Shown: positions 1 to 41,400 of the stretch, piece by piece
Numbering within the stretch: position 1 is the first letter of the stretch
Layout: each line of letters begins with the position of its first letter
IMG/VR virus record: IMGVR_UViG_3300031867_005256
Coordinates: 4,636-68,635 of that record
From: a virus
Taxonomy: Duplodnaviria; Caudoviricetes
Direction: 5' to 3' (one strand)
DNA: 64,000 nucleotides
The notes under the pieces: model-generated
What the model was told of the DNA's origin: nothing
The model's input: the letters and a program-made list of their open reading frames with translations, nothing else
Database searches by the model: none
Made by a program: the position numbers and the translations under genes

Positions 1-3000
1 ACAGCTTATGCGGGTGCGGTTTTACAGAGCCGCGCCCTCGTTGATGTAAGAGATTGTATTAAGCCTTCCGCTCGACAAATTTTTTATTGTCTATATACAG
101 ATAAATTTTTACCTAATAAGCCTTTTAAAAAGACACTTAAAGCAATAGGCTCTGCAATGAGGACTTATATACACGGTAGACAAAGCGTCTGAAAATAGAG
201 AATATAAATTTTGGTCTAATTTAAAGAATGTATATTTGAGTTTTTCTAATATAAATAGATAAGAAAATAAAGGAGTGCTATTTATGGAAAAACTTAAAAA
301 AGATATTATTAATGCTATTACTTATTTAAAGCAAAACCCCCATACAAGTGCAACTAAAGCTGGACAAATTTTTAATGTCAGTAGAAAAATTATTGCAAAG
401 TATTTAAAAAATGATGAATATAAAAAATTTATATATGAAAGCCCTACCGAAGAAGAGTATCTTTATTATTTCTCTGCAGAAGAAAAAGCTGCAATAGATG
501 ATTATGACTATTGTTTAACTTATGGATATTCTCGTTTTAAAGAAAAACATCCCAATGCTCCTGCAAGGAAAGAGACTTTAATTCGTTGGCTTGTTATTTT
601 AGGGATAGACCCAAAAATATAGAAAAGGAATAGTTATCATTTTAATAGAAATGCTTTTCAAACTATCAAAACTGAAGAAGATGCTTATTGGTTAGGCTTT
701 ATTACCGCAGATGGTTGTATTGTTAATGAGCAAAGATTGTCCATAAATCTTGCAGAAAAAGATAAAGAGCATTTAGTTAAATTCTGTAAGTATTTACAAA
801 TGCCAGAAGAAGAAATTGATATGATTATTAAGACTTCTACTGGCGGAGCCTACACTAGAGACAATCCAGTAAGCGTATTAAATATTTGTTCAGTAGATAT
901 TGTCCATAATTTAGAAGATAAAAAAATTTGTGCAAGAAAGTCTGGAGCAGAAATTCCTTATATTTGTAGTTCTATAGAATTAGAAAAATCCTATATTAGA
1001 GGTTTAATAGATGGCGATGGCTATATTAGAGAAACCCAATATGGATTAGGATTAGTAGGGAGCTATGATATATGTCAATATGTACAAAATTTTATTTCGC
1101 AAAACATTAAAGATATATCTTCTAATAATATCCGAGAACATGGAACAATTTATAAATTAGAATTAACAGGTAAGTTATAGTCTTAGTAGATATTAGATTA
1201 CTTATATAAAGATGCCAAAATTTATTTAACTCGTAAATATTCTCTTTATAAAACACGATATTGCCGTGGCTAAATTCCGGAATTAAACGGGAAGGCTAAG
1301 TCGAAAGATATGCTAATCCGAACCGAAGGCTAATCTAAGATTAGTCAGGGGCAACGCATAGGGAGTGAAAAGATATAATCTCCCCACGAGGCCGGAACAT
1401 TCTAATTTAATAAGAATGAAAAGATATGCTGAACTTATAGGAAACTATAAGAGCCAAAGGATAAAAAGCCTTTGGGATAACAAATTGGACAGTAGCGCAG
1501 AGGGAGTTATGCTTAGAGCCTCACAGGATTTTGCAATGCGTTATCCTCTTGTTGAAGTTGAAGGTAATAATGGTAATTTAATGGAAAGCGGCAACTGGGC
1601 GGCTTCGAGATATACTTCTTCTCGTTTAACAAATGTTTGTGTATCTATGTTTAATAGCATAGACAAAGAGACAATAGACGAGTGGAGAGATAATTATGAT
1701 GATACTGAAAAGTATCCCGCAGTTCTTCCAACCAAAGGCTTCTATAATATTGTAAATGGAAGTTTTGGTATAGGAACTGGTGCTGGCGCAAGTATCCCGC
1801 AGTTTAATCTTAAAGAAATTAATAAAGCAATGGAGAAACTTCTCCTTAATCCTGATATTTCTTTTGATGAAATTTATTGCTGCCCCGATTTTGCAACTGG
1901 CGCATATCTTTTAAATGAAGCAGAGGTTAAGGCGGCACTTGAAAAAGGCAATGGCGGGTCTTGTAAGCTCAGAGCAAAAATGAAGTTTGATGAAAAAGAC
2001 AAATGTTTTATTGTGACAGAAATCCCTTATGGTGTTTATACGAACACTATTTGCGGAGAACTTGAAAAGATACTTGAAGACATTGATAATCCCGGTGTTG
2101 AAAGATTTAATGACTTAACAGGTGAAAAGCCTCTTATTAAGATTTATTTAACAAAAGATACAGACTATAAGAAAGTAGAGAAATATCTTTATAAGAAGAC
2201 TTCTTTACAGTATCATTATACAATAAATCTTACAATGTTAAAAGATGGAAGATTTCCTAAAGTATTTACATGGAAAGAGACTCTTCAAGAGCATATAAAT
2301 CATGAAATAGAAGTCTATACAAGAGGTTATCAGTATGATTTAAAGAAAATCCTTGCTCGTATTCATATAATTGAAGGTCTTCTTATTTGTCTTGCTTCTA
2401 TTGACGAAGTTATTACTGAAATTAAAACTTCTTCTTCAACAGCAGAAGCAAAACAGAGATTAATAAAGAAGTTTAAACTTTCAGATGAGCAGGCAGATGC
2501 AGTTCTTCGTATGAAGTTAGCAAGTCTTGCTAAGCTTGAAGTTAAAAAACTTGAAGATGAAAAGAAAGAATGCGAAGAAGAAAAGGCCAAGATAGAAGAA
2601 ATACTTAATGATAGAGACAAGTTAAATGAACAGATTATTAATGGTTGGAGAAATATCTCTGTGACATACGGCGATTCCCGCAGAACTGAAAGTGTTACAA
2701 TTATAGATGAAAAGGAAGAAGAAGTTCTTCCAGAACCTGAAGATATTGTAATAACGGTATCAACTAATAATAAGATAAAGAGAACACCTGTAGGAAAAAT
2801 CAAGAGACAAAATAGAAATACCAAGGGAACACAAGTAAACAGTGAGGTACCTCTTGTAGTATTAAAGACTAATACTATTGATATACTTTACCTTTTTACA
2901 GACAAAGGAAGAATGTATAGTCTTAATGCGGGCGCTCTTGAGGACACAGATACTTTTGTTCATTTCTCTCGTTATCTCAATATAGAAAATGATGAAACGA

Positions 3001-6235: not shown

Positions 6236-7132
6236 ATGACAATATTTTTAATAATTATAAGTTTAGTCTTATGCGGATTTCTTATTTACACTTATTCTTT
6301 ATCAAATCAAGAGAAGATAAAAGCTAAAAAATTTGAAGAATAGTTAAATGTCGCTTTAAAATAGCAGGCTATTTGTTAGAAAAATTATGAATAGCAGAAA
6401 TTTTTAAGTGCGGGCTATGAGCATACGATAGAACTATTAAGATAGAATATTATTGAAGAGTATACTTCCGAAGAAGCGAAACTTCAACAAGAATTAGAAA
6501 CTTTAAAATATGAATTAGAGAATACTAATTAGTTATATGATTAGGCTTTTCATAGATTACAAGAAACAGAAATGAAAGCGGATGCTGTTCAGTGTCAAAT
6601 GGAAGCACGAGTTGCCGCATTACAGAGAGAACAAAAGATAAAAGATAATCTTTCTGACTATTGCTTGCAAGTTTCAAATGCGGACTTACAAGATATTGAG
6701 ACATTAGAAAAAATTAAATCAAAACTTAACAAACCCCGCATTTTATGTATGTTAATTTGGTAGACATATTTTTAGAAGCAATTAACCACTTTAAGCAATA
6801 AAATCCTTGGAAGCAAGGTTGTCTGTGGTATCTATAAGATAACAAATCAGCTTGATAATCAGTGCTATATTGGTTAGAGTACGAATATCAAGGATAGATG
6901 GGCTGATCATGTTAAGTGTGGATTAGGGATAGACACCCCCGCAGGAAATAAACTTTATGATGCAATGCAGAGAGACGGAGTTTGGAATTTCTCTTTTGAA
7001 TTATTAGAAGAATGTTCAAGAGATATGCTAAATCAAAAGGAGAGAGAATATATTTCAATATATGATTCATATAATTTGGGATATAATAGCACTTCTGGTA
7101 ATAAAACCATTAATCTGATAATAAGAAAATAA
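6236..7132 (+). CDS. N-terminal TM + coiled coil + C-terminal GIY-YIG nuclease, 298 aa with 10 TAG
   Basis: One open frame when TAG=Q. N-terminus MTIFLIIISLVLCGFLIY is hydrophobic. CGIYKITN...CYIG[TAG]STNIKDRW is a canonical GIY-YIG motif. Confidence 0.8.
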
Positions 7133-11552: not shown

Positions 11553-13841
11553 ATGATAAGATATGTTGATATACCCTCTATTATGCAAGTTATTGGAGGG
11601 GTCTTTATAGATAATTCTCTTTTGGATAATGATAAATATGTTTTTTCAGAAGATGATTTTACAGAAGAATTTCATAAGATTCTCTTTGGCTCTATCTATA
11701 ATATTCATCTTTTGGGTGGAGAAAAAATAGATATTACTTCAATAGAGCATTATATAGAACAAAGACCAAAGGCTTATGGAATATATAATGCAAACAAAGG
11801 AAGAGAATATTTACAGAGGCTGGCGGAAATCACCCAACTTTCAACTTTTGATTATTATTATCAGAGGATGAAAAAGATGACCCTCTTCCGCAGTTATCAA
11901 AAGATTGGAATGGATGTCTCTTGGTTATATAATCCAGACGATGTTCTAAATATAAAGAAGAAGCAGTCTCAAGAAGATTGGTTAGATAGTACTTCTCTTG
12001 AAGAAATTGCGGATATCATTAATGATAGAATTGAAGATATTCGTCAGAAATATGCGGAATGTGGCGCGGATAATACTGTTCAAGCAGGCGCGGATATAGA
12101 TAATTTTCTTGAAGATTTAAAGAAGAATCCTGAATACGGGTATCCGCTTTATGGGCCTCTTATTAACACAATAACGAGAGGAGCAAGATTGAAGAAAGTA
12201 TATCTGCGGTCTGCTGTAACGGGTCTTGGAAAGGCTCTTGATAATGAAACAGTTCTTCCTACTCCAAATGGTTTTTGTCAAGTCAAAGACATTAAAGTAG
12301 GAGATAAACTATTTGGCGCAGACGGAAAGCCTACTACTGTCATTGGCGTATTCCCGCAGCCTGAGCCGAAGCAAGTCTATATTGTTCGTCTTGTTGATGG
12401 TAGAGAAATAAGATGTTGTGAAGATCATTTATGGCAAGTAAAAATTTTAACGAGAGGAACATCTCGTTGGATAATTAAAACTACAAAAGAAATTTTTGAA
12501 GAAGAGCAAACGTCTGACACACCTTTCTGTTTTATCGACCAAAAAGGTTATACACGTCCAAAATGGGGAATACCTCAAAACAAACCAGTGGAATATGAAT
12601 ACAGAGAATTGAATAGAGATATTGAAGATTATGCACAAGAAGCATATGGATTTAATACGATGATACCAGAAGAGATAATGTTTAATACTTCCGAAATTAG
12701 ATTTAAATTTGCGAAAGAATATTTAAGAGGTAGAAAACATTTGGTATATTTAGAAGAAAATTCATATTGGTGCTATGTAAGTTTTTTCAGAGGATTGGGA
12801 TATACTGTTCATACTTCTGAAATATATGATGAAGAAGAAGAGAGATTTGTTTATGTCTTGAAGATTCCAGGGAACACTTCTAAAGTTCATTGCGCTATAC
12901 AGAAAATAATAAAAACAAATGAATATGCGGAAATGACTTGCTTTACTGTTGATAATAAAGATTCTCTATTTTTATGCGGCGACCATGTTGTAACACACAA
13001 TACTCGTATGATGATTGCGGATGCTTGTAATTTCGCTTGCAAGAAAATTTATGATAAGGAAAAGCGGAGTTGGCAAGAGAAAGATTATCAAGTACCTACG
13101 CTTTTTATAGCAACAGAGCAAGATATAAGAGAAATTCAAACGATGTTAGTAGCTTTTGTTGCAGATGTTGATGAAGAGCATATTCTTACAGGTCAGTATG
13201 AAGATGAAGAATGGGATAGGGTAAAAGAAGCGGCAGACATAATTAAAAATGCTCCCTTATATGTAGAAGAATTACCAGACTTTTCAATGCAAGATATTGA
13301 AAAAATTATTAAGCGAAATATAAGAGAACATCAAATAAAAGCAACTTGTTTTGACTATCTGCATTCGAGTATGAAAATACTAAGCGAAGTTTCTGGTAAA
13401 GCAGGCGTTAAAGGTTTAAGAGAAGATAATGTATTATTCATGATTAGTGTGCGTTTGAAAGACCTTGCTAATCAATATAATATTTTTATCATGACCTCGA
13501 CTCAGTTGAACAGTCAATATTTGGACGGAAAGCTTGACCAGAATTCCCTTCGAGGTTCAAAGGCTGTCGCGGATAAAGTCGATTTTGCGTCTATCCTTGT
13601 TAAGGCAACTAAGCAAGATTTGGAATATTTGCAATCTATAATAGAAATGGGTTTTCCCGCACCAGATATTAAAATGTCTATTTATAAGAACAGAAGAGGA
13701 AGATATAAAGATGTAATTTTATGGTGCCGTAGCCGCAGAGAGAGCTGCCGCATTATTCCTATGTTTATGACAGATTCAAATTATGAATGGATAGATATTA
13801 AAGATACTAATATAAAAATAAAGAGTGATGAAAATGTTTGA
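11553..13841 (+). CDS. dnaB: DnaB-like replicative helicase with an intein
   Basis: Walker A RSAVTGLGK|T is split by the intein. Also FIATEQ, FDYLH, MTSTQLN, LRGSKAVADKVD and KNRRG. Confidence 0.9.
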   Translation: MIRYVDIPSIMQVIGGVFIDNSLLDNDKYVFSEDDFTEEFHKILFGSIYNIHLLGGEKIDITSIEHYIEQRPKAYGIYNANKGREYLQRLAEITQLSTFDYYYQRMKKMTLFRSYQKIGMDVSWLYNPDDVLNIKKKQSQEDWLDSTSLEEIADIINDRIEDIRQKYAECGADNTVQAGADIDNFLEDLKKNPEYGYPLYGPLINTITRGARLKKVYLRSAVTGLGKALDNETVLPTPNGFCQVKDIKVGDKLFGADGKPTTVIGVFPQPEPKQVYIVRLVDGREIRCCEDHLWQVKILTRGTSRWIIKTTKEIFEEEQTSDTPFCFIDQKGYTRPKWGIPQNKPVEYEYRELNRDIEDYAQEAYGFNTMIPEEIMFNTSEIRFKFAKEYLRGRKHLVYLEENSYWCYVSFFRGLGYTVHTSEIYDEEEERFVYVLKIPGNTSKVHCAIQKIIKTNEYAEMTCFTVDNKDSLFLCGDHVVTHNTRMMIADACNFACKKIYDKEKRSWQEKDYQVPTLFIATEQDIREIQTMLVAFVADVDEEHILTGQYEDEEWDRVKEAADIIKNAPLYVEELPDFSMQDIEKIIKRNIREHQIKATCFDYLHSSMKILSEVSGKAGVKGLREDNVLFMISVRLKDLANQYNIFIMTSTQLNSQYLDGKLDQNSLRGSKAVADKVDFASILVKATKQDLEYLQSIIEMGFPAPDIKMSIYKNRRGRYKDVILWCRSRRESCRIIPMFMTDSNYEWIDIKDTNIKIKSDENV
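12234..13001 (+). mobile_element. Class 3 intein (256 aa) in the DnaB P-loop
   Basis: Starts ALDNETVLPTPNG (Ala1) and ends VVTHN|T. WCT signature is present: DHLW (block B), MTCFTV (block F), THN (block G). Confidence 0.88.
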
Positions 13842-14922
13842 TAAAGATGAAATAAAAAACAATCTAACAATAGAGCAAGTAGAAGCCTATGTTGCGGAAC
13901 TCGGAGGGGAGCCGCAACAAGGCAGAGGTTGTTTAATGTGTAAAACAATTTGTCATCATGATGATGCAGATGCCGCAAGTCATAAATTATATTATTATCC
14001 GAACACTCATTTATTTAAATGTTTCACTCATTGTGAGCCTTCTTCTTTTGATATTTTTGATTTAACTCTAAAAGTCAAGAGTAGGAATAATCCTTCTTTT
14101 TCTTTTGGTAACGCTATTCAATATGTCGCTAATTATTTTAATATCAGTTCATTTTCTTTTGTGGGTGAAGACTTTCAATTACCAGATTGGAAAATTTTTG
14201 ATAAGATAAAAGGAGAAGAAAGAACTTCTTATTCATCAGGTCAACTTGGTACTTATAAAGATGATATTCTGAAATATCTTCCGCAACCTTTAATACAAGA
14301 TTGGCTTGATGAAGGAATATCAAAAGAAGTGATGGATGAGGCGGGCATTCGCTTTGACCCAGTTACAGATAGTATTATTATTCCGCATTATAATATAAAC
14401 AATGAATTGATTGGAATAAGAAGAAGAACTCTAATAAAAGAAGAAGAAAAATATGGAAAATATCTTCCCGCAATTCTTAACGGAACCATGTACAATCATC
14501 CTTTGTCTTTTGCTTTATATAATTTAAATTTATCAAAAGAGAACATAAAGGTCGCGCAAGCCGCTGTTATCTATGAATCAGAAAAAAGTTGTTTAAAGCA
14601 TAGAACTTTCTTTGGCGCGGATAATGATATAAGTGTAGCGTGTTGCGGAAGTAATTTGATTTTACACCAAGCAAATATATTAAAAGATTTGGGTGTTAAA
14701 GAGTTTATTATTGCTTTTGATAAACAATGGCAAAAAGTTGGAGATGAAGAATATCATATTTGGACTAAAAAGTTGATTGAAATTAATAACAAATATAAAG
14801 ATGATTTTTTAGTGTCTTTTGTTTTTGATAAACAGAATGAATATTTAGGATATAAAGATAGTCCTATTGACAGAGGTGGCGAGGTATTTTTAAAATTATT
14901 TAAGGAGAGGATATATCTATGA
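13828..14922 (+). CDS. DNA primase
   Basis: Zn-binding CHH...CFTHC, IIIPHY...LIGIRRR, TOPRIM VIYESEKS and IIAFD; adjacent to the helicase. Confidence 0.88.
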   Translation: MKMFDKDEIKNNLTIEQVEAYVAELGGEPQQGRGCLMCKTICHHDDADAASHKLYYYPNTHLFKCFTHCEPSSFDIFDLTLKVKSRNNPSFSFGNAIQYVANYFNISSFSFVGEDFQLPDWKIFDKIKGEERTSYSSGQLGTYKDDILKYLPQPLIQDWLDEGISKEVMDEAGIRFDPVTDSIIIPHYNINNELIGIRRRTLIKEEEKYGKYLPAILNGTMYNHPLSFALYNLNLSKENIKVAQAAVIYESEKSCLKHRTFFGADNDISVACCGSNLILHQANILKDLGVKEFIIAFDKQWQKVGDEEYHIWTKKLIEINNKYKDDFLVSFVFDKQNEYLGYKDSPIDRGGEVFLKLFKERIYL

Positions 14923-16724
14923 AATATACATTATTAGGTAAAAATAGTTTATCATTATATGATATATTAGAAAATAGAAATATAACAAACCCATAGAAGT
15001 ATTTAAATTTAACAGATGCAGTTATAAATAATTATGAACTATTGGGAATAGATAATCTTAAAAATGCGGCGACCACCTTACTTAATACGATACAGCAAGG
15101 TTAGAAAGCGGTAATCGTGGTTGACTGTGATGCTGATGGTTTTTGCTCCTCAGCATTGTTTGTCAACTATCTATGGCATTATTTCCCATCATGGGTAGAA
15201 AATAATCTTGATTTTTTCTTACATGAAGGCAAAGTTCACGGTCTTGCAGATTGCTATGAGAGTTTTATTGAAAAACGATATAATTTAATTATCTGTCCAG
15301 ATAGTTCAAGTAATGATTATGAATATCATGAAGCCTTGGCTAAACATAATATCAAGGTTATTATTCTTGACCATCATGAAGCTGAAAAAGTAAGCCCTTG
15401 TAAGAATATCATAACAATTAATAATCAGCTTAGCGATTATCCAAATAAAGATTTTTGCGGCGGAGGTATTGTTTGGCAGTTCTGCCGCTTTCTGAACGAC
15501 AAACTTTTTCATGATGATTATTATTTAAAATTTCTTGATATTGTAAGTTTAAGTTTAATTAGTGATATGATGAGTTTAACTTCGCCTGAGACTGCTTACC
15601 TTGTCAGAAAAGGTCTTGAAGAAAATAATCTCCATAATCCTTTTATTACTTATATAAGAGAGAAAAACTCTTATTCGATAGGGCCTGTATCAACTCCGAT
15701 GGGATGGGCTTTCTATATTACTCCTTTTGTAAATGCAATTGTGCGAAGTGGCACAATGGAAGAGAAAGAATTAATTTTCAATTCTTTTATCGAATATAAA
15801 GCCTTTCAAGAAATCCCCTCTACCAAAAGAGGATGCAAAGGACAGCTTGAAAAACTTGTAGAATAGGCTGTTAGAACTGCTACAAATGTTAAAGCAAGAT
15901 AGACAAAAGCTCAAGATGCGGGAATGGCATTAATTGAAAAGAAAATAGAATAGGAACATTTACTTGAACATAAAGTAATTTTATGTTTGTTAAATAAAGA
16001 AGATATCGCCCCAAGTTTAGCGGGTCTTTGCGCAAATAAGATCATGGCAAAATATCAAAGACCAGTTTGTGTATTAACAAAACGAGAAGAAAAAACACTA
16101 CCTTGGGAAAATGAACAAGAGACAATTGTAAGCTATGCGGGAAGTGCGAGAGGATGCCCGCGAGTTGGAGCAGATAATTTTAGATAGATTAGTCAAGATT
16201 TTGATGGCACAATATATGCGCAAGGTCATACGTCAGCATTTGGCTTATCCTTAAAGGGAGAGGCAATTAATGAGTATCTTGCCTACACAGATGAAGCGTA
16301 TAAGGACATTTCAGATGAAGCTGTTTATTATGCTGATTTTATTACGGATTATGGAAATTTATTAAGCGATAGTTTCATGCTCTCAAAAGAAATAATGGAA
16401 ATAGGTAGTGCAGATGAACTTTGGGGTCAAGATGTTACCGAGCCATATATTGTAATAGAAAATGTCACTGTTACACCTGATATGGTTAATATTTATGAGA
16501 AAAAAGATATCACTTTAAAGTTACAGCTTACACATGATATTGCGGCAATGAAATTTAAAATATCAACAGAAGAATTAAAGTTATTTAGAGATATAGCGGC
16601 AACTGGCTCAATTACTATTACTATTGTTGGACAGTGTAGAATTAACACTTTTAATGGAACGACTTCCGCATAGATAGAAATAAAAGATTTTGATTTATTA
16701 GCTACTAAAAAGTATGATTTTTGA
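14919..16724 (+). CDS. recJ: RecJ-like DHH/DHHA1 ssDNA exonuclease, 601 aa with 7 TAG
   Basis: VDCDADG, ICPD, ILDHH, FCGGG, SDMM, YAGSARG and AQGHTSAFG lie in one frame with TAG=Q. ATGA overlap with the primase stop. Confidence 0.88.
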
Positions 16725-18449: not shown

Positions 18450-19118
18450 ATGCCCAGTCAGTATGATAACAAAGGCGGCTATGCAGGCTATAATAAAAAT
18501 AATAAAGAGAGAGCGGCTCTTGATTATTATGCTACGCCAACAGAAGAAGTTACAAATATTTTAAATATTCTTAATCTTGATTTTGAAGCGGACGATATTA
18601 TCCTCGAACCTTGTTGCGGCGGCGGTCACATGATAAGAGGTATTGAAGAATATTGTAAAATTAATAACGTATATCCTTCAATTGTTGGAACAGATATTAA
18701 AGATAGAAACCCTTCTGTCACCTTAACCAGTACCTCTTGTTATAGCGGAGAAGAATATGATTTTCTTCCTCCTGATTATCCGATAAAAGAAGCTGATTAT
18801 ATTATTATGAACCCTCCTTTTTCAACATTGGAATTTTTTGTAAGCAAAGGAATAAAGATGTCAAGAAAGGGCTTGCTTGTTTTTGGTAGGCTGCAATTTC
18901 TTGAATCAAAGACAAGATTTGAGAACATCTTTAAGGATACTCCACCTTCTAAAATATATGTATATGTTGATAGAATTGGTTGTATTAAGAATGGAGATCC
19001 AGATATCAAAGTACCAAAGATTCAAGCATATATGTGGGCATATTGGGACTTTCTACCTAGCGTGCCTTTCACTTCATTAAATTGGATTACAAGTGCCAAT
19101 TATAAAGGGGCAAAGTAA
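18450..19118 (+). CDS. DNA amino-methyltransferase
   Basis: DYYATP, LEPCCGGG (motif I) and IIMNPPF (motif IV). Confidence 0.85.
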   Translation: MPSQYDNKGGYAGYNKNNKERAALDYYATPTEEVTNILNILNLDFEADDIILEPCCGGGHMIRGIEEYCKINNVYPSIVGTDIKDRNPSVTLTSTSCYSGEEYDFLPPDYPIKEADYIIMNPPFSTLEFFVSKGIKMSRKGLLVFGRLQFLESKTRFENIFKDTPPSKIYVYVDRIGCIKNGDPDIKVPKIQAYMWAYWDFLPSVPFTSLNWITSANYKGAK

Positions 19119-19120
19119 TT

Positions 19121-19900
19121 ATGAAGTATATGGGAAGTAAAAGAAAATATTGGAAAGACATAGTTCCAATTATACAAAGATATATAAATGAACATAATAT
19201 AGAAGTTTTTATAGACGCTTTTGTTGGTGCAGCAAATTTGTCAGAGCATATAATAGCCCCTATTAAAATAGGTAATGATTTAAGTTTTAGCTTAATAGGT
19301 TTGCATAAACAAGCACAAGCAGATTTTTCTAAAATACCAGCAGAAGGTAGCAGAGAAATGTGGGATAAATGCTATTCTGAATGGAAAAGGATTAATGCTT
19401 TGCCGCTGGAAGAGAGAAAAGAATCTGAGATACCTTTCTATGAAATTGGTGCAATTGAATGGTATGGGAGTTTTAGCGGAAGAGGCTTTCCGGGCGGATA
19501 TGCAAAACCGAACGAAACAAGAAATCCTTATGTTTCAAGTAGAAATACTCACGAGAAAGAAGCTAAAACTTCTCTGTATCAAGATATAATTTTTACTTGC
19601 GGAGACTACCGTACAATACTTGAAAGATTCAAAGAATTATCTGATAAGAAAATCCTGTTTTATTTTGATAGTCCATATAAAGGGACAAAAGCCTATGGAA
19701 TATCCCCGCATTTTAATTTTGAAGAGTATTATGATTATTTGAGAAAAATATCCCAAACTTATCCTTGCTTTATTTCAGAATAGGAAATGCCAGAAGACTT
19801 TCCTATTGTTTGGGAGAAAGCAGCAGAAAGAACTGTTGGCTTAGATAATCATTATCAAGCAACAGAGAAGCTCTTTCTATTAGAGCCTGCAATCAATTGA
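19121..19900 (+). CDS. D12-class (Dam-like) adenine methyltransferase, 1 TAG
   Basis: MKYMGSK, FIDAFVG, DSPY (DPPY variant) and FISE[Q]EMP...EKLF. Confidence 0.8.
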
Positions 19901-19979
19901 ATAATTTATAAAAATATGTTATAATTATTATAGAAAGTAAAAATTATAGCATATTTTTATTTTGAAAGGGGATGGTTAA

Positions 19980-22900
19980 ATGGCTACTCTGAAAAGAATG
20001 GAACTCCACTCTCATACAGAGTATTCTTAAAAAGCTAATCTTCGCATTGTGGATAGTATTAACAAGCCAGAGGCGCTAATAGACAGAGCAATAGAATTAG
20101 GCTTGGCGGGTATTGCAATAACAGACCACGAGAGTTTGTCTGGCAGCATCCGCATAAATAAATATGCTAAAAAAATCAGAGAAAAATATCCAGACTTTAA
20201 AATTGCAATTGGTGACGAAATTTATTTAGTAGATGAAAGACCTACTGATAAGCATTACCATTTCATATTAATTGCGAAAGATGCCGTTGGGCATAAGCAA
20301 CTTCGTTATCTATCTTCTCTTGCATGGATGAACTCTTATTATGCGAAGGGTCTTGAAAGAGTAGATACTCTGAAATCCGATTTGGAGAAAGTAATAAAAG
20401 CAAATCCCGGTCATATTATGGCGTTTTCAGCGTGTCTCGGTTCAGAGATCGACCAAGCTATATTAAGATTGACAAAAGCAGAAAAAGTAGACGATGAAGA
20501 AGAGAGAAAGAAAGCTCATAATGATATTGTAAAAATGGTTCTTTGGTGCAAGGAATTGTTTGGAGAAGATTTCTACCTCGAATGTCAGCCCGCCTGTTCA
20601 AAAGAGCAGATTACTGTAAATAGAAGATTACTTTCAATTGCAGCTTGTTTTAATGTAAAGATGACAGTTTCTTGCGATGTTCATTATTTAAAGAAAGAAG
20701 ATAGATATATTCATAAGGCTTTTCTGAATAGTAAACAAGGTGAAAGAGAAGTTGATGCTTTTTATGAGTATACATATCTTCAATCAAATGAAGAAATATA
20801 TGAAAATTTAAAAGCCTGTGATTATGATGAATTATTTGTTAATCAGCTTTTTAATAATACGATGGAAGTGTGGAACAAAATTGAATTTTATGATTTTGAA
20901 CACACTCAGCAAATCCCCTCAGTAGAAGTGCCGATTTATAACAAGCGGCAGCCGCCCGCAGAATTAATAGAAAAGAATGAATTATCAAGAATGTTTCAAT
21001 CTGATGACGATGTAGAACGTTATTGGGTAAATTATTGTTGGGATAAGTTACAAGATTATTGCAAGAAAAAGAATAAAGATATCGTTCCTTATATTGATGA
21101 ATTAGAAGAAGAAGCCGAAGTAAAAACAATAGTAGGAAAGAAACTTGATACAAATATGTTTTCTTATCCTGTCGTTTTACAACATTATATTGATTTAATT
21201 TGGGAGTGCGACAGTATTATTGGGGCAGGTCGTGGAAGTGCGTGTGCTGCTTTAAATCATTTCTTGCTTGGAATTACCCAGCTCGACCCATTGGACTGGT
21301 CTTTTCCGTTCTTCCGATACATGAATAGGGAAACAACCTCGCTTGGAGATATAGACATTGATGTACAACCGAGTCGAAGGCCCGCAATTATGAAAGCTAT
21401 AAAAGAAGAGCGAAGTAAGAATATTAAATCTACATATGATGATAAAACGAAAACTGAGCTTGGTTGTACTTACGTAGCAACATTTGGAACAGAATCGAGC
21501 AAAAGTGCAATACTCACCGCCGCAAGAGGATATCGTTCAGAAGAATTTCCTGATGGAATTGATAGTGATATTAGTAAATATTTATCTTCTCTTATACCTT
21601 CTGATAGAGGTTTTGTAAGAACTTTATCTCAAGTCGTTTATGGAGATGAAGAAAAAGATTATAAGCCTATTGCTCCATTCGTTGCGGAAATCAGCCAATA
21701 TCCTGGCTTATTAGAAATAGCTATGGGAATTGAAGGGCTAATATCAAGACGTGGTATTCACGCATCTGGTATTATTATGTTTGATGAAGATCCATATGCA
21801 AGATGTTGTTTTATGAAAGCCCCGAATGGGAGCATTACGACTCAGTTTGACCTCCATGATGCGGAATATATGGGCAATGTAAAGTATGACCTCCTTGTTA
21901 CGGAAGTCTGCGATAGGTTAGGTCAGACTCTCAAGATTATGCAAGAGAAGGGAATTTTTGATAAAAATTTAACTTTAAGAGAATTATACAATCAAACCAT
22001 TCATCCTGATGTTTTAAATATAGAAGATGAATCAGTATGGAAATCTATTCAAGAAGCAAATGTTTATGCTATGTTTCAGCTTGACTCAAATGTTGGCAGA
22101 CAAGGGACAAAAGCAATCAAGCCTACTAATATGTGGGAATTGAGTAATACAAATGCTTTGATTAGACTGATGGCGGAAGAGGGTGAAGAACGCCCGATGG
22201 ACAAGTATATCCGCTATCGTAAGAATCCAGTCTTTTGGGAAGCAGAAATGGATAAATATGAATTAACAGAAGAAGAAAAAGAAGCCGTGCGGAGACAGCT
22301 TGATAAATCTTCTGGGGTAGGTCTTTCTCAGGAACAGCTTATGAAGATTTTGATGAACGAGCATCTTTGTCATTTTAGTCTTGCTGAAGCCAATGCAGCG
22401 AGGAAAGTCGTTTCAAAGAAGAAGTTCAAAGAAATCGAGACTTTAAAAGAAAAAGTATTTAATCATGCCAGAAATGAAAAGCTTGGTCAATATATTTGGA
22501 CTTCGGTTGTACAGCCTCAGCTTGGATATTCCTTTTCCGAGATACACTCGCTTAGTTATAGCTACATTGGTTATCAAACCGCATATATCTCAACCCACTG
22601 GAATCCTGTGTATTGGAACACGGCTTGCTTGATTGTCGATTCAGGCTCTCTCGATGCAGAAGAAGGAGAAAAAGAGAAGAATACAGACTATTCTAAAGTT
22701 GCTAAAGCAATAGGAATGATGAAATCTCAAGGAATAGAAGTTTCTTTGGTAGATATTAATAAATCTTCTTTCGGTTTTGAAGCAGATGACAAAAATAATA
22801 GAATATTGTTTGGTTTAAAAGGATTGTCAAAGATAAATGATGAGTCAGTAGAAAAAATAATAAGCGGAAGACCATATACAGGAATAATTGATTTTATGAA

Positions 22901-31796: not shown

Positions 31797-34211
31797 TCAT
31801 ATTTTAGATAATGCTTTTGTTGCATTAATTGTCATTGTGCTTCCTAAGCCAAGAGACAAATTGATAGATTTTATTAAGAACAAGTCATTAATATTTGTCT
31901 TATCATCTTTTACTTTTATCAAAGTGTTTGGCTCAAGGTGATAGATAGGCACTGTGGTTAAGCTGATCGTCTCATTGAAACAAGTATACTAATAAAGCAA
32001 GTCTTTTGCCGCAACGTCTGCGCCATTGGGAGTTGATTTCATTGACAAGGAAGGATAATCTTCACGAGAAATAAGCACATAATGATTAGTTGTCTCTTTA
32101 CATATGTCAATTTGGTCTTCCTAATCTTCTCTACTATAATATAAATCTTTCGCTGCGGCAATCACAGCGTTGCTCAATGCTCCCATAAAGTCGTCTCTTG
32201 ATTTATAAGGTGTCCACTAAGAAAGGACGCTATCAGGATTATCTGAACTAAGTAAAAATGTCCATACATCATCTTTTTTATTAACGTATTTTCCATTAGT
32301 ATAATCCTCGGCATATGATTGAATAGTATCTATTGTTGTTCCCATAACAGTATTGAAATACGAATCTAAATCTTGTAAATTCGTTATCGTAACTCCGCTA
32401 CCTGTCATATGACTATAAATAGCATTACGGAAATTAGTACAAGGAGAAATAAGCGCAACATCAGGAGTAACAGGTTCAAAAAGACAATTTATACTATCGT
32501 TAGTTAAGACTTTTGTTCGACGACCAATTTCAGAGACACTGTATTTTCCTATGTCCGAAGTAGTATCAATAAAATCCAAGAAATAATTTAAAGTTTCAGG
32601 CTTGTCTCGAATTTCTTCCTTATAATGTCCTTCTTCAATATTATATATCTGAGGCCAGAAGGCTGACAATTCAGAAAAATAATATCCAGGCTCGGTGCCA
32701 TTCTCATATGCAAGCTCACCCTAAAAGAATAACTCTGTTCTCCAGTCTCTTGCTTCTAAGATATTTCCGCTTGTATTAATGTTATCTTCTGTGATTTGCA
32801 TTAAATCTTTGTAAATTATGTCTCCATAAGCATCCTCAGAAGCCTCTCCAATATATTTTCCGCCGAAAGGAGGCTTTTTGTCAATAGCTAAATGATAGCG
32901 GATAGCTATACTTTCTCCTGTACTGGTCTTCCTTTTCCCTTGAATAATGAAATCATTTTTAATATTGTCATAGTTAGGGCTATTCGATATTGCAACGATT
33001 TTAGTTCTGTCAGAAAAATCATAAGCTACTTTTCCTCTTGTTCTATCTACAATATAGCTACTATTGTTATCTGTTACATCTCTATCATAATAATATACCG
33101 TATCTGATATGTAACTTCCTTGCTCTCCAGGCTCGTAATTAATTTGAGTCATCAGGTTACTACTTAAAGAAGTATTTAAATAATTTTTCACTTCCTAAAA
33201 TCTAAAGTTACCAAGAGTATCATAAAAATATTCATAGTTTCCTAAAGCATCTCGAACTTTATCTAAGACTGTCGTTACTGCGGAGCCCGCCTCCCCTGTT
33301 AAAGTTCCAGGGTAAGTAAAGTCTGTAATCTCATATCCAACTGTGTTTAAATTTGAATAAGGTTTATAAGCGCCCCAATCAGTAGGAGGAGATGAGGAGA
33401 TGGCATATCTTACTTGTAAAGTATCTGTCGAGTTTAAATCATCTGTACTAAGATAGAAGTATTTCGTTTCTTCTTCATCTATTGCTATTGCGGTTTCGCC
33501 AGTTTCAGTAGTGGTCATTGAATAAGAATAAGGCTGAGAAGTATCTGTATAAGTTTGTGTCCATGTTATGACTTTTTTACTTGTCTAAAGTAAATCCCCG
33601 ATTAAAATTTTACCAAGCTGCTCTCCGCCCCAATGGTTAACAGCTTCCATAATAATTTGATACATAGTTACTTCTTTATCGACAGTATCTTTAAGTCGTT
33701 CATCATACAATCTTTTTGTACTAAAATCAACCGTTGCGGGAAGTACACCGCCAAGCGTACCATTAAGTAAGCCCATCTTATCTACTAAATTTAAAGATAC
33801 TGTATAATTATCCAAAGAGTGAGAAATAGAGCAACCTGTAATACAAAATTCTCCTTGCGGGAACCAGATATAAGGATATTCTTCTTGTGTATAAACAGTC
33901 TCTGTAACTTGCTCGTTCTTCACGCCTATCAAAAGAAGAAGTCTCTTGTTCAAAGCAAATTTTGCTGTTAAATCGTTGTAGCCAACAGACTGATTAATTG
34001 GACAGAAAGTAATTGAGCCAGTCCTTCTTAAACTTGAACTTCCATCAATATTAATATTTCCATCTACTATCAAGCCTTGAACTTCCTCTATCTCTCTATC
34101 ATACTAATCTAAAAGAATACATTTTATTTTTGTCCTCTGCACTCTCTAATCGTCAATCTTTTTTAAAAATCCGTTATCTAATAGGTATGGATATTCGTAT
34201 AGTAAGCTCAT
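31797..34211 (-). CDS. Tail-tip / baseplate hub-like protein (DUF5048-like), 804 aa with several TAG
   Basis: Four track ORFs plus the flanking sequence form one frame with TAG=Q: GNINIDGSSSLRRT...LLY[Q]YT...PIYHLEPNT. Function inferred from position. Confidence 0.75.
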
Positions 34212-34214
34212 TTC

Positions 34215-34892
34215 TCACACCCCTTTCTTGTATAAATGAAGATGTATTTCTGTGGGAACTTCTTCAACACTCGTTTCTTCATCCGTGACTTCATCAATAT
34301 CTATGACACCTAAAAATCTTAAATCAGTTACTTTTTCCTCAAGAGAGCAAAGTTCAGTCCATCCGATTGTTATCTATTCTTCATTTACAAGAAACTGACT
34401 ACCTTTTCTACTCTCTATTTCAACTTTATCATAACTTTCTCCTTGCGGCAACAGATTAGTATTTAGAGTAAGGCTTTCCGCGGGAACTACTAAATCGAAA
34501 CAAGAAGTATAAGGATTTGAAGAAAGAGATGATGGAAAATCTACATCTGTTATTTCTGCATCTGACTTCTTTTCAAACTTTGCTTTATATTTAATATCAA
34601 CATCATCTTCTTTAAAGAAAGTTAAAGAAGTTATTTCAAAAAGAGAGTCAGATTCAAGGTGATATTTGCATTGTTCTCCAACAAGCACTCTTTCTCCATT
34701 TAAATAAAAATAATATCCATAAAAAACCGCATTTTCTTCATCTATATTAAAATTTTCATTAAAGTAATGAGGCGCAACATAAGAAGTATTAAAAGTAATG
34801 TCTAACATATAAAACCCCATTAATTTTACTTCTTCGGTAGTCCAGTGTTTAGTTATAATTGTAGCTATGACATTTTCATTAGGATGCTTCAT
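34215..34892 (-). CDS. Tail/baseplate-region protein (225 aa), 1 TAG
   Basis: ORF 34374-34892 continues through TAG to a TGA that abuts the next start. Confidence 0.65.
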
Positions 34893-37078
34893 ATCAGACC
34901 CACCTCTGTTACATATGCGGTATAGGTGTAAACATGGGCGCCGCTGCCTTCTTCTTCTGTATAAGCCAAATATTGTATATTATATTTATTATAGTTATCA
35001 ACAGTGCAATCATCCAATTCAACAGCAGTACAAGTAAAGTCATAAACTAAATTATCCAATTCTGTTTTTGGAGTGAAAGTCATATCTGTAAGTCTAACTA
35101 AAACGTTTCCCTCTGCCGCAGTTTTTAAGAGGAAAGAGTTGCCACTTTGTAAGAAAGACATAACAGCTTTTCTATATTCTCTTTCAAGAGTAATATCATT
35201 AAGATTATTAATTCTGTTCTTACCATTAAAAGTAGTATAATTATCAAGAACTCTGTCATACTTAAATAACTGTTCTTTTGTGCGGAAACCCTTGTTTACA
35301 TTTACTGAAACAAGATTATTGTTTTCTATAACCGTAGATTCTTTATCAAAGCAGTCTTTAGAAAAAACTAACTCTTCATTATTGTCATTATATGATATTG
35401 TTCCACTTAAAGAGAGGGTTCTATAATTAACTATATCATTTCTATAAAAGTAGGGAAACTGAGAGCCAATTGTCTCTATTTGAGCTTCTCGAATATTATT
35501 ACTATAACTCGTTACAGACTCTCCAAAAGAAATCGCTAAATGACCAAAAGCATTAGATAAAAACATTCCATCGTAGAAAGGAAATAAAGTTTTTGGATCT
35601 TGCTCTTCCTCTCCTGCCTCTTTCATACTTCCATCTTCTTGAACAATATAAACGCTACTTCTTGAGCCAGTAGCATTTTCAATAGCCTATAAGCCATACC
35701 AATACTGAATCCCGCTTTCCGTAGTTACATCCTAAGTATTGATTATATGAGCGCCTTCTTCTAAAACTATAATATTTAATTCTTCCCATTCTGAAAAATT
35801 CGTTGTGCTGTCTGTTCTTATAACAGCAAAAGAACAATCATATTCTTCTCCGTCACCAATAACGACCGGTTTAAATTCCTCCGTTGTACTAACCGTTAAA
35901 TCTACCTATCCTCTTGGATCGTCTTCTGAACAAGAGAGAAGAATGTTAGAGAAAGAGCCTTCTAACGGTTCAACGTTCGCTGTAAAATGTAGAGTTCCGC
36001 TCCATCCATTACGAGTCTCCGCATAAATAGAAATTGAATAGTTAGCCTTATCAAGCATCTTTTTGATTTTATAAGAAAAAGAATTATCAATATTCTAAGT
36101 GCTTAAAGAAATATCTCCAGAATCATCAATAAGCTCTCCTGAAAGAGTAGTTGTTTTAACTCTGATTTTCTTTAAAGTCTCTGGCTCTAAGCCATCTTCA
36201 GGAATAGTTAATCTACCTATAATATTAATAAGAGGAGTTCCGAAAGTTAGTATACTATTTTCTGTAATAGGCTAAGAATTGATAACCCATTCTGGAGAAT
36301 AAATACTTTTAACAAGTACTACTGTTGACCATTCAGATACAAAGTTGTTTTCTTCTAACCAATCTATACATTCTCTCTTTCGCGGCATTACCTAACGTAA
36401 AAGAGTTAACGGATTTTCTTGGCTTCCAGAAGTTTTTGCACTGTTTGCCGCATTTTTATATAAGTCTGATAAATATTTAATCGCCATATCTTTAAAGCCA
36501 TATGCGTCTTTATGAAGAGTGCAGTTTTCCTATGAAGATTCTTCTTTTTCTATCAGAACATTGTGAGTAAAAATATCCTCTAAAGAATCATCATAAGTCC
36601 AAGAAGGTACGCTATTGTAATAAACAGGGTCTTTGGTAAGCCTTGCTTGAACTCTATAATATTGCCCAGGCATCCACTATCCTGCATCAAGCTGTCGTGC
36701 GGCAATAGCATAAGAAAAAAGATTGTAATTATACTTTCCTTTTCCCATTTTTGTATCTCTAAAGACAATCTAATGATAACTTATTTCTTCCGAAGCAAAC
36801 TATCTTGCTAATATAGTAGTATTATTCCTTACTGTGTTGGCAATAGATTGGATAGAATAAGTTGACTTATAATATCCTTTTTCATCTACTTCCCGCGGGT
36901 CATTCTCTCTCGCGCTGTAATAATAATATTTATTATCTCCGTTTGAACTGCTCCTCTATTGAAAAGGTGACAAATCAAAATAAAAGCGTGCGTTCTGTTT
37001 GACTCCGTCTATTTCTGTTTCAAATACGGGTATCATCGTATCGACAATAGGCGGATATAGTGGTTCTCTATTTGCCAT
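34889..37078 (-). CDS. Distal tail / baseplate protein (729 aa), many TAG
   Basis: MANREPLYPPIVDT...SEWSTV...ETIGSQFP forms one frame with TAG=Q; RBS upstream. Confidence 0.7.
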
Positions 37079-38455: not shown

Positions 38456-41400
38456 TTACTTATTATCTGTCATTTCTGTTGCTGCTTTATTATAGAGTTT
38501 CTCAAATGCGGCAGCTATTTCATCTGCACGAGTTTTTCCATCAAAAGTAGCATCTATTTCAACAAGTTGTTTAAGTATTTGTTGACGGTCTGCTAACAGT
38601 TGTATAATTCCTGCTACACCTTGTGCAATACTTGCTTGCGCACCGCCCTGCTCTGCTGCAGCAGTCATTTTGTCAAAAATGCCATTAGCTATGTTAACAG
38701 CTCTCTCATGAGCTTTCTTTTCTTCTTCTTCCATCTAAGCGGCATTAGCAGCCCTGATTTCTTCTTTTGATACTTCGGAGGCTTCTTCTTCTTTCTTCTT
38801 TGTGCGGTCATATGCTCCTAAATCTGTTGAACGATGAGAGTATCCGAAGGCTCGAGGGTCTTTCTTTGCATTTCGAGAGTCTTTGTCATAGCTTCCTAAT
38901 GTGGAGATATCTTGAATAGTGCTGATGCCTTCCATTGCTTCAATTTTGCTTCTTCCTCTGTCTCCATAGAGACTTTCGTCGTAATAAGCAATACCATCCT
39001 TCATCCAATAGTCAACAGTGCCACCATAGTCAACTGCAGGAACTGTTCCAGTCGAAGACCCTGCATCCGCATTCCCGAAATCAAGAGCACTGATTTCCTG
39101 TTCTCTCATCAAGAGACTCTCTTCATAAGCGTTTAAAGCCGCATCTATGAGCTACTGTAAAAGATCTTCTACTCCTTCAAGTTCTTCAAGGACTTTTTCC
39201 ATTTGAGCGAGTTGGTTTAACATATTATCTACTTCAGAAGCAAGATAATCAGCCATTGTCTGTTGAATACCAATATCACTCTCAATATAGCTTTCAAGCA
39301 TACTCTGAATACTTGCAGCTTCACTTTCTCTTTCTGCAGATGCCGCAACGGATTCTTCAATATCTTCTTGAGAAAAATCTCCAGAAGTATCTAATTTATC
39401 TTTATATAAATCAATGAAGCCTTCGTCTCCGCCCTTAGAATAGGTCTGCATATCTTCAAGAGATTGACTTAAATCTCCTCTGAGTTTTGTGATTAATCCA
39501 TCTGCTCCAAAATATTCTTCCCACAGAGAATTTGCTTTTCCGCTCTTCTCTTCTGTCGTTAAGCTGTCATCTTTAAAGATAGACTCCATAAGAGAAGTAA
39601 ACTTTGTTTGTAAAGAATCGATGGTATTACCTGTCTCTTTTACATTGTCACGAGCTAAATTGTAAAGCTCATTTTCAGCTTTCGCAACCTCAGCCTCCGC
39701 CTTTTTCGTCTCTTCTTCATCCGCAACATATTCATATCTATAATTACCTGCCGCGTCTCTTCTCAAGCGCATCTTAGATTTATTTTCTTTTGCTTCATCA
39801 AGAGCCATCTGCTTTAAAGTTAATTCATAAAGTTTATTTGCTCTCTCTATTTCATATTTACTTATTTCTTTTGTTGTATTTAATCTTTCATTTAATCTTT
39901 CATTAATTTCTTGCTGCACTTTAAGTAATTGTTCTGATGCGGCGGTATCCGTCATTTCCGCAAGAGAATCATTAATTTTTTGATTTAAAGCATTGATTTG
40001 ATAAAGAGAATTAGTATAATTATAAAATGCTTTATCTTCGCCTTCTTGTAACTCATTCATCCAAGAATATTGTAAAGAAGTTCCTGATAATTCGTCTTGC
40101 GCCTTCTTAACTCTTTCAGTAATGCTATTAATAGTATTTTCAAATTTCTCATTAATAGAGTTCAGAGCAGTTTCAAAATATCCATAGCTTGAAGATGCGG
40201 CATCCTAAAATGCGGACATCCATTTTTGAGCAGCATCTTTATTCCCCTTTGCAACTGCCTCAGCAAACTTCGATGCATATAAATCAGCCTAAGAACGTGC
40301 GGTATTTGCAACAGCGAGGTTTGTGCTAATAATTCTCTCTAAATAACCATTCAATCTATCATATGCTTTATCGCCATAAGCTAATTTAACGCTATTTGAG
40401 AGAGTGCCTAAAGCGGAAACAATTTGATTAAGACTCGAAAGAAGCTGACTGTTTGCGGAAATGATAGCGTCAATAGCAGAAAGATAAGTTTCTTTCATCT
40501 ATTTTATATTATCCATTGCCGCCTGTGCATTGCTTCCAAGCTAATCTCGATATTTCTCTAAATCACTAAAAGCGGCAGACTGATCTGTTCCGTAAATTTT
40601 TGAAGTACCCCCGCCCTGCATTGTACGGATTTCCGCCATTATATCATTAACATGATCTGTTAAAATCTGAATACTTCCACCAGGTAATGTCGAATTAGGA
40701 TTTGTCTTTATGTATTCTTGAAGTTGCTTGAATTGAAGATTGAGATTTCCTAAATAATCATCATCTCTTAAACCTTCTAACTCTGCACGCAGTTTGTGCA
40801 GGTTTCGCCATGCTTCTTCGATATTTACTTCTACATCAACTTTTGCATTAAAATTATTAGACAATTCTTTTGCCATAGCATCTTTAATAGCTTTCGCTGC
40901 ATCCGAGGCAGAATCTTTAGCAGATTGTACCGTATCAAACTGGGAAGCCACTTCTGCCCCCTATGAATTAAGAGCCTCAAGATTACTAAGAAGAGCATCT
41001 CTTTCATCCCTTCTTAAGCCTACCGCACTCTCAATTGCGGCAACCATCTCATAATAATTAGCAAGAGAGGCATCTTCATTAAGGACTATCTATGCTTCTA
41101 TACCGGCTTTGGCTAACGCCATCTAAAAATCTTTAATTCTTTCTTGCATCTATTTTTTCAATATAGCAAGTTTCTTTTCTTCTTGTGCTACGATCTTTTC
41201 CTGCACTGCAAGTTGTTGACGCAAGTTATTAACCAGGGCTTGTCCAGTTAAGTCAGATTGAGCTTTCTTCAATTTGCTTAATTCCCTATTTAGTTCTTTT
41301 ACTCTCTAATCTACTTTACTTGTCTCGATTTTGTCTTCCGCAGCTTTAACTTTTTCCGAACTTACGGCAATGTCGTCCATAATTTCTTTATATTTTTCTG

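Follow-up and report, generated by a model that had tools for sequence, protein, structure and literature searches.

How does a phage obtain a complete DNA polymerase from a gene whose reading frame is closed by a stop codon after only 16 codons? This question is raised by dnaE in a stretch of 64,000 nucleotides, hereafter the window, that covers positions 4,636 to 68,635 of the IMG/VR virus record IMGVR_UViG_3300031867_005256 (Duplodnaviria; Caudoviricetes). An original prediction for this locus, made from the sequence alone, had placed a nine-nucleotide insertion containing a TAA stop inside the PHP motif of the polymerase, and had proposed that it is a short translational-bypass element. 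We find that the nine bases are a real and fixed part of this phage, and that 15 further gap variants, 5-10 nt long, lie at the same Ser-Asn junction in related phages. From these comparisons we consider the gap of the window to be, rather probably, an inherited stop-led coding gap of a recurrent, endonuclease-associated class in the dnaE genes of herbivore-gut phages, with ribosome hopping as its likeliest decoding.

The nine extra bases of dnaE

Reading and translating from the ATG at 19980, we obtain 16 codons, MATLKRMELHSHTEYS, that end in TAT TCT (20022-20027). TAA (20028-20030), AAA and GCT follow directly after the Ser16 codon, and the frame of the ATG resumes at AAT 20037, from which 1,290 codons are open to TAA 23907-23909; the gap is the stretch 20028-20036. 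The start, the gap, the long continuation in the same frame, the promoter and the ribosome-binding site had all been described in the original prediction, and a direct reading agrees with it in every detail. The long frame holds PHP, DNA_pol3_alpha, finger and HHH_6 domains in this order (Pfam, E from 2e-34 to 2e-15), and can be aligned to the Pol III alpha of Taq (2hpi). The nearest cultured relatives, namely YorL of SPbeta and the DnaE of Enterococcus and Staphylococcus phages, are about 38% identical to it and uninterrupted, and the product is a DNA polymerase III alpha of the SPbeta YorL type.

An alignment to four annotated phage homologues shows that the H.HT.YS-N.R motif is split in the window, between Ser and Asn, by exactly three additional codons. 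The motif H.H...S-N.R has no extra residues in any of these four, in the 70 unique uninterrupted metagenomic relatives or in 105 of the 120 database proteins listed, and thus the window carries exactly nine extra bases. Its closest uninterrupted relatives, which are 75-79% identical to it, read M..RME(C/L)H.HTEYSNIRLVD. The homologue motif given in the original prediction is therefore right by alignment: removal of the nine bases restores it, and no uninterrupted relative has a three-residue insertion at the site. A gene caller starts the DnaE of the window at an internal Met, 93 residues into the open reading frame (ORF; P0004), and gene callers will likewise truncate or mis-start other polymerase genes that bear such gaps.

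The window stretch is found in bovine-gut metagenomes of 11 studies. Logan contigs from four runs, belonging to four different bovine-gut studies, cover positions 19974-20084 and carry the same nine bases, with zero indels and zero base changes across 19895-20083, while the same contigs differ from the window elsewhere at 5-16 positions per kb. An identical gap in these independent contigs is not an assembly error, nor is there the miscalled base that the original prediction had allowed for, and the nine-base gap is a real, fixed form of this phage. The gene is also kept. Among ten strain differences in dnaE 3' of the gap, seven are synonymous, and the remaining three include the conservative changes K to R and V to I; from this preponderance of synonymous differences it follows that the interrupted dnaE is under purifying selection. 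The 280 codons 3' of the site are free of stops in all 98 aligned rows, the 13 type-A and four type-B gap-bearing rows included. The mini-ORF keeps its start, its ribosome-binding site and the H-x-H motif, and its His and Leu codons differ synonymously from those of the related locus L013 (CAC/CAT, CTC/CTG). None of the runs listed as holding DNA of the window is recorded as RNA.

The simplest escape, that TAA is a sense codon in this phage, was considered and is ruled out, because TAA terminates 20 of the 37 large ORFs (TGA the other 17). It is TAG that is read as sense: with TAG open, the coverage by long ORFs rises from 44.7 to 65.2 kb, and an ORF of 2,711 codons, holding 38 TAGs, appears on the minus strand at 38456-46591; TAG is likewise read as sense at 31797-37078 (-), 6236-7132 (+) and 14919-16724 (+), and a RecJ-like gene has 7 TAGs. 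There is no in-frame TAG in dnaE. The phage recodes TAG only, which we take to be a code 15-like recoding as in its relative Phass-1, and TAA is a normal stop, as had been claimed from the sequence at the outset. No tRNA gene, suppressor or otherwise unusual ones included, was seen on the window or on the 68.6-kb contig, and as the contig is 44% complete (CheckV) this result is not conclusive.

Recurrent gaps and their endonuclease neighbours

We looked for comparable gaps by protein-guided scans of viral contigs and genome bins, by one DNA pattern scan, and among database proteins that might be gene-caller artefacts. The variants found are given in Table 1 under our own locus handles. In an unbiased profile scan, a stop-led gap was present in 6 of 78 loci and a different interruption in another six. 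The genome bins with related contigs bear conflicting labels (Bacilli, Clostridia, Mollicutes, Methanobrevibacter), and we therefore assign no host. A DNA search of deposited phage genomes with the window gave one weak Staphylococcus phage match only, and a metagenome scan for its near relatives returned just two loci, both of them previously in the set.

Table 1. Gap variants at the Ser-Asn junction of dnaE in related phages, written as take-off codon, gap and resume codon
Locus	Gap length	Take-off codon	Gap	Resume codon
L034 group	5 nt	TCT	TAA CC	AAC
L013	6 nt	TCT	TAA ACT	AAT
L126	6 nt	TCT	TAG TCT	AAT
L023	7 nt	TCT	TAA C TCT	AAT
L155	7 nt	TCT	TAG G TCT	AAT
L158	7 nt	TCT	TGA G TCT	AAT
L159	7 nt	TCT	TGA A TCT	AAT
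L160	7 nt	TCT	TAG T TCT	AAT
L161	7 nt	TCT	TAA A TCT	AAT
L036	7 nt	TCT	TAA A TTT	AAT
L111	8 nt	TCC	TGA TG TCT	AAT
L147	8 nt	TCC	TAA TG TCT	AAC
L189	8 nt	TCT	TAG TG TCT	AAC
L169	9 nt	TCT	TAG GTA TCT	AAC
L191	10 nt	TCT	TAG TGT G TCT	AAT

In every variant, removal of the gap restores the family consensus YS-N(I/L)R exactly, and in all 15, as after TCT 20025-20027 of the window, a stop codon stands directly 3' of the take-off codon. Each of the three frames and each of the three stop codons is represented among the gaps, so that no single readthrough and no single frameshift decodes the family, and readthrough is excluded at the loci with gaps of 5, 7, 8 or 10 nt. We also rejected +1 or -1 frameshifting at the stop, which would need three mechanisms at one site and leaves the invariant TCT unexplained; the stops inside the gaps do not in themselves exclude it.

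What the variants share lies at the level of codons. The Ser codon before Asn is free to vary in the 70 unique uninterrupted relatives (TCA 23, AGT 18, AGC 11, TCG 9, TCT 7, TCC 2), whereas all 11 variants that were found without codon bias have TCT or TCC there, against 9 of the 70 (13%) uninterrupted loci (Fisher 1.4e-8). TCT and TCC are the pair read by one tRNA. At the other end, the gap closes with an exact TCT in 12 of the 16 variants, the window included, with ACT, GCT or ACC (that is, NCY) in three and with TTT in one. The interior varies freely between variants, and the close relatives L159 and L161 differ by a change from one stop to another (TGA and TAA). A constraint that acts on codons and not on amino acids fits re-pairing of the peptidyl-tRNA, a "stop-hop", and not readthrough. 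Hairpins of 6-8 bp enclose the gap in L147 (-7.2) and in L159 and L161 (-3.5). No conserved RNA structure was found around the gap in the window, L034, L111 or L155, and RNA structure is thus not a general requirement.

Many of the gaps open with TAG (L126, L155, L160, L169, L189, L191). If these phages recode TAG, the suppressor would turn the stop of the gap into sense and end productive hopping where the gap is out of frame, which would provide a possible temporal off-switch for DnaE. In L111/L113 and L147, the stop of the 8-nt gap overlaps an ATG that is in frame with Ser-Asn, and stop-start coupling could act there beside hopping or instead of it.

A gene of about 320 residues lies directly 5' of dnaE in L013 (328 aa), L036, L111, L126, L160, L169 and L044/L068. 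Its product has Cys-rich repeats at the N-terminus and a C-terminal nuclease domain (DUF2726-like PD-(D/E)XK; the match to Pfam DUF2726 itself is weak), and it matches phrog_374 (E 7e-52), phrog_9084 'homing endonuclease' (3e-27) and phrog_7140 'intron encoded nuclease' (4e-22). In L191, the corresponding upstream slot holds an HNH-type gene. Counted before the later-added loci, an upstream endonuclease neighbour is present at 6 of 13 gap loci and at 2 of 70 uninterrupted loci (p 1e-4); stop-led gaps are associated with a free-standing gene for a homing endonuclease immediately 5' of dnaE.

In DNA alignments, recombination breakpoints coincide exactly with the gap. Between L111 and L102, identity is 98% 3' of the gap and about 75% over the 16 codons before it, and farther upstream the two are unrelated; between L013 and L162, it is 100% over about 110 nt 3' of the gap, and upstream they diverge. 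Because of this recombination, the tree of the downstream DnaE is uninformative about the history of the gap, and we set aside the test of a single origin on that tree, on which 13 gap rows need at least 9 changes. L034 and L068 share a gap and differ by a 1.2-kb indel of the endonuclease, which indicates that a gap can persist without its endonuclease.

The window bears the same marks in its comparison with L013. The mini-ORF is 89% identical between the two (5 differences in 45 aligned bases) and the rest of the gene 76%, and their gaps are a 3-nt indel apart, TAAA(AAG)CT. Synteny between the window and the L013 contig is kept to either side of the upstream slot, which contains the endonuclease gene in L013 and two methyltransferase genes in the window. 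Judged by these alignments, the window seems to have received or inherited an L013-type cassette, of which it has kept the 5' module and the gap but not the endonuclease.

Other free-standing endonuclease genes occur elsewhere on the contig. A LAGLIDADG homing-endonuclease gene precedes gyrA (window 275-1270, +), a GIY-YIG homing-endonuclease gene with 10 in-frame TAGs lies at window 6236-7129 (+), and a GIY-YIG-like ORF adjoins a gyrB-like ORF upstream of the window (contig bases 3270-4037). In-frame TAGs in such genes suggest that they are produced only once suppression is active.

The dnaE gene is a hotspot for mobile elements. A second type of interruption occurs in L118, L120/L121, L131 (=L021), L146/L148, L184 and L207, in which AAT ATT CGN TTA CTT TGA C lies about five codons 3' of the equivalent of window position 20037 and a +1 shift restores LL-D(S/C)IN. 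An HNH gene (Pfam, above cut-off) stands directly upstream in 5 of these 6 variants, compared with none of the 83 other loci of the first set (Fisher 4.5e-7). The +1 frameshift site of prfB (RF2) is CUU UGA C, and L118, L120, L131, L146, L184 and L207 resemble it in carrying TTA CTT TGA C with a frame that a +1 shift restores. Unlike prfB, these relatives show no upstream Shine-Dalgarno stimulator, and their site, which is absent from the window, is linked to an upstream HNH gene and not to autoregulation. Larger inserts break the dnaE of relatives at about aa 425-450 (L019, L021, L022), at about aa 825 (L018, L024, L029) and at about aa 817-904 (L159, L161, L162, L163), at two conserved places overall, and in L159, L161 and L163 the break is followed by ORFs that match LAGLIDADG_3 or GIY-YIG of Pfam faintly or weakly. 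The dnaE of L027 has an intein-like end (..VHN/C). In the window, a DnaB-like helicase (11553-13838, +) has about 400 unassigned residues between its N- and C-terminal domains, which may be an intein or another insert.

Decoding of the gap

From the comparisons, we infer the hopping itself, its efficiency, the target of the endonuclease and the protective role of the gap. We envisage that the endonuclease would cut the DNA of the conserved PHP motif I in phages free of the element, and that a few extra bases between the Ser and Asn codons would make its own copy uncuttable. As extra residues in the metal-binding loop would probably be harmful, such an insert would open with a stop and be skipped. 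In the window, the Ser-tRNA would sit on UCU 20025-20027 in the P site, with the slowly decoded UAA in the A site; the peptidyl-tRNA would leave UCU, the mRNA would slip by 9 nt, and the tRNA would re-pair on GCU 20034-20036, where two of three bases match those of the take-off codon (codon positions 2 and 3 only). Decoding would then restart at AAU, and the ordinary HTEYS-NLR protein would be made, though probably in smaller amounts. With the endonuclease absent from the window and methyltransferases in its place, the gap would persist alone, and may survive as immunity against the endonucleases of co-infecting relatives.

Several observations weigh against this interpretation. The first base of the GCU landing is mismatched, with G facing A36 of the anticodon, and a matched UCU that is out of frame lies close by (20039-20041) as a possible decoy landing. 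The window has no take-off stem-loop, with a minimum free energy of 0 kcal/mol for the segment from the take-off codon to Arg and a z of +0.4 over 81 nt, and there is no endonuclease gene beside its dnaE, since the two methyltransferase genes fill the slot. As the gap is 9 nt long and in frame, readthrough would also yield a full-length protein. The variants may share ancestry through the spread of a cassette, and the counts given above are then not fully independent; the TGATG and TAATG overlaps of L111 and L147 are also compatible with stop-start coupling. The bypass proposed in the original prediction has gained comparative support from 15 sibling gaps with a UCY take-off and mostly a UCU landing, and hopping in the window itself is weakened by a gap that is in frame and a landing that is unmatched.

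A stronger claim would be that the window holds a minimal natural stop-hop that is skipped efficiently with no matched landing, hairpin, long peptide signal or adjacent endonuclease. We put this forward tentatively, as something that may well not be so. If it is true, something in the cell favours hopping, for which limitation of a release factor tied to the recoding of TAG, or a property of the Ser-tRNA or the ribosomes of the host, are candidates, and short gaps would be portable immunity marks against homing endonucleases.

Among the alternatives, the one that survives best is readthrough of UAA 20028 by a near-cognate or suppressor tRNA, giving a DnaE with three extra residues (x-Lys-Ala) between H-x-H and the Asp ligand. 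The gap keeps the frame, a property shared by the gaps of L013, L126 and L169, and the phage already depends on stop suppression for TAG. The length of the loop is not rigid either: between H-x-H and the Asp ligand, the phage family is already three residues longer than the Pol III alpha of Taq, and an insertion there might be tolerated. Nonetheless we regard readthrough as unlikely, because TAA terminates more than half of the large ORFs, no tRNA gene is present on the contig, and it cannot decode the 5-, 7-, 8- and 10-nt gaps of this junction. Moreover, extra sense codons occur at the site in none of the 70 uninterrupted relatives, and the in-frame gaps of L126 and L169 end in an exact TCT that readthrough does not require.

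The stop at codon 17 could also mark a dead or dying allele, in which the insert, perhaps collateral damage of an endonuclease, knocks out dnaE and the polymerase of the host or of a co-infecting phage is used; the contig is only about 44% complete, and a second polymerase could lie elsewhere. We think this quite unlikely, as the 1,290 codons 3' of the gap are intact and their strain variation is mostly synonymous, the same allele recurs in four studies, and the frames are open in all gap-bearing relatives. Conservation of the take-off and landing sites extends to the codons themselves, and no other polymerase was seen in the 64-kb window.

Termination followed by re-initiation, for example at the in-frame GTG 20049, would produce a DnaE that lacks the H-x-H strand, for which the separate 16-residue peptide might compensate. 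The overlaps of L111 and L147 lend it something, in that they put an ATG two codons before Asn. Against it, nothing purine-rich that could serve as a Shine-Dalgarno sequence stands 5' of GTG 20049, as the original prediction had also noted; Asn1 and Arg3, which lie upstream of this GTG, never vary within the family; a start codon close to the gap is lacking in most variants; and the second TCT codon is left unexplained. All this makes re-initiation very unlikely.

Removal or correction at the RNA level, by a micro-intron, by editing or by transcriptional slippage, is extremely unlikely. The nine bases can be parsed as a U followed by CUUAAAAAG between two boundaries, from which the original prediction had derived a collapsed group I intron scar, and there is a run of five A at 20029-20033. 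Slippage on this run cannot remove the TAA, and the scar does not stand up to the comparison, since the gaps of relatives, at 5-10 nt, are far too short for a ribozyme fold, have a last base other than G and are of unequal length in close relatives. A self-splicing intron was rejected likewise, on gaps of 5-10 nt with variable ends and no ribozyme core. As to an artefact of assembly or sequencing, which the single metagenomic contig of the source might have suggested, its probability is negligible, this reading having been refuted by the independent contigs of four studies with an identical gap and no indels.

Known systems and other features of the window

To our knowledge, programmed bypassing has essentially one well-studied natural example, gene 60 of phage T4, in addition to inserts in yeast mitochondria. 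The gene 60 bypass reportedly lies within the MobA homing-endonuclease element. In that system, the bypassed insert blocks self-nicking and survives the loss of the endonuclease, and it lies in a conserved metal-binding motif, where identity to relatives that lack the element breaks off cleanly (Manning and Atkins, bioRxiv 10.1101/2022.08.31.505936). The dnaE gaps resemble it in that a stop stands directly after the take-off codon, the gap interrupts a conserved metal-binding motif in a gene essential for replication, relatives have a free-standing homing endonuclease next to it, the gaps have a patchy and recent distribution, identity breaks cleanly at the insert, and the gap is kept after loss of the endonuclease. 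They differ from gene 60 in being 5-10 nt long and not 50 nt, and in lying in dnaE, which is unsplit, and not in a topoisomerase gene. No gene-60-like nascent-peptide signal was seen in the window, where the nascent chain has just 16 residues, and the take-off hairpin and matched landing of gene 60 are missing there too. Unlike MobA, the endonucleases here are of the Cys-rich/DUF2726-like PD-(D/E)XK or HNH kinds, and the phages belong to another lineage, with Bacillota-type gut hosts and a recoded TAG.

Stop-hops have been engineered in E. coli, where they work with low efficiency (Weiss et al. 1987, as described in PMC5009743), and a recoding review of 2016 knew of no natural in-frame stop-hop (PMC5009743). 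As in the synthetic constructs, the same or nearly the same codons flank the stop of the dnaE gaps, and 6-9 nt specify one amino acid, a description that L126 (TCT TAG TCT) and L169 fit exactly; unlike the constructs, the arrangement in dnaE is natural, recurrent and under selection. The nearest precedent for the short distance is the terminase gene of the Streptomyces phage phiHau3, in which 10-nt inserts after UUA have been proposed to be bypassed (Antonov et al. 2023, PMC10732093). There too, short inserts (7-10 nt) in a conserved phage gene are absent from homologues, but the trigger is a rare sense codon with the bldA tRNA, the proposed role is the sensing of lysis and lysogeny, and no link to an endonuclease is reported.

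Our literature searches found no publication that describes gaps of this kind in dnaE. If they are hopped, the gaps would form a large natural series, of 5-10 nt, in all frames and with all stops, with and without hairpins and with matched and unmatched landings, from which the minimal requirements of hopping could be defined. They would also extend the self-protection of selfish endonucleases by untranslated inserts to other nuclease families and to another essential gene.

The features discussed above are collected in Table 2, together with a truncated remnant of the endonuclease family that lies far from dnaE.

Table 2. Positions of dnaE, its gap and neighbouring or related features in the window
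Feature	Positions	Strand	Basis
Two adenine DNA methyltransferase genes	18450..19900	+	Pfam, synteny
Promoter-like TTGAAT-17 nt-TATAAT, with TG before the -10 hexamer	19897..19925	+	sequence scan
Shine-Dalgarno-like purine-rich AAAGGGGA, 7 nt 5' of ATG	19965..19972	+	direct reading
First 16 codons of dnaE, with the H-x-H metal-binding motif of the PHP domain	19980..20027	+	translation, alignment
Candidate take-off codon TCT (Ser16)	20025..20027	+	TCT/TCC in all gap-bearing relatives
Coding gap TAA AAA GCT, 9 nt	20028..20036	+	homologue alignment, four-study contigs
Candidate landing triplet GCT	20034..20036	+	position relative to gap ends of relatives
Remainder of dnaE, from AAT (Asn) to TAA	20037..23909	+	translation, Pfam
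Truncated endonuclease-family remnant, 65 aa	61279..61476	-	tblastn, 48% identity over 75 aa; ORF list

The promoter-like element of dnaE is part of a motif of about 40 nt (TTGAAT..TGTTATAAT..) that is found at 19897-19943 and at seven other places on the contig, recurring through the early region. At 19906-19939, within this motif, contig depth shows a tenfold spike in all four runs.

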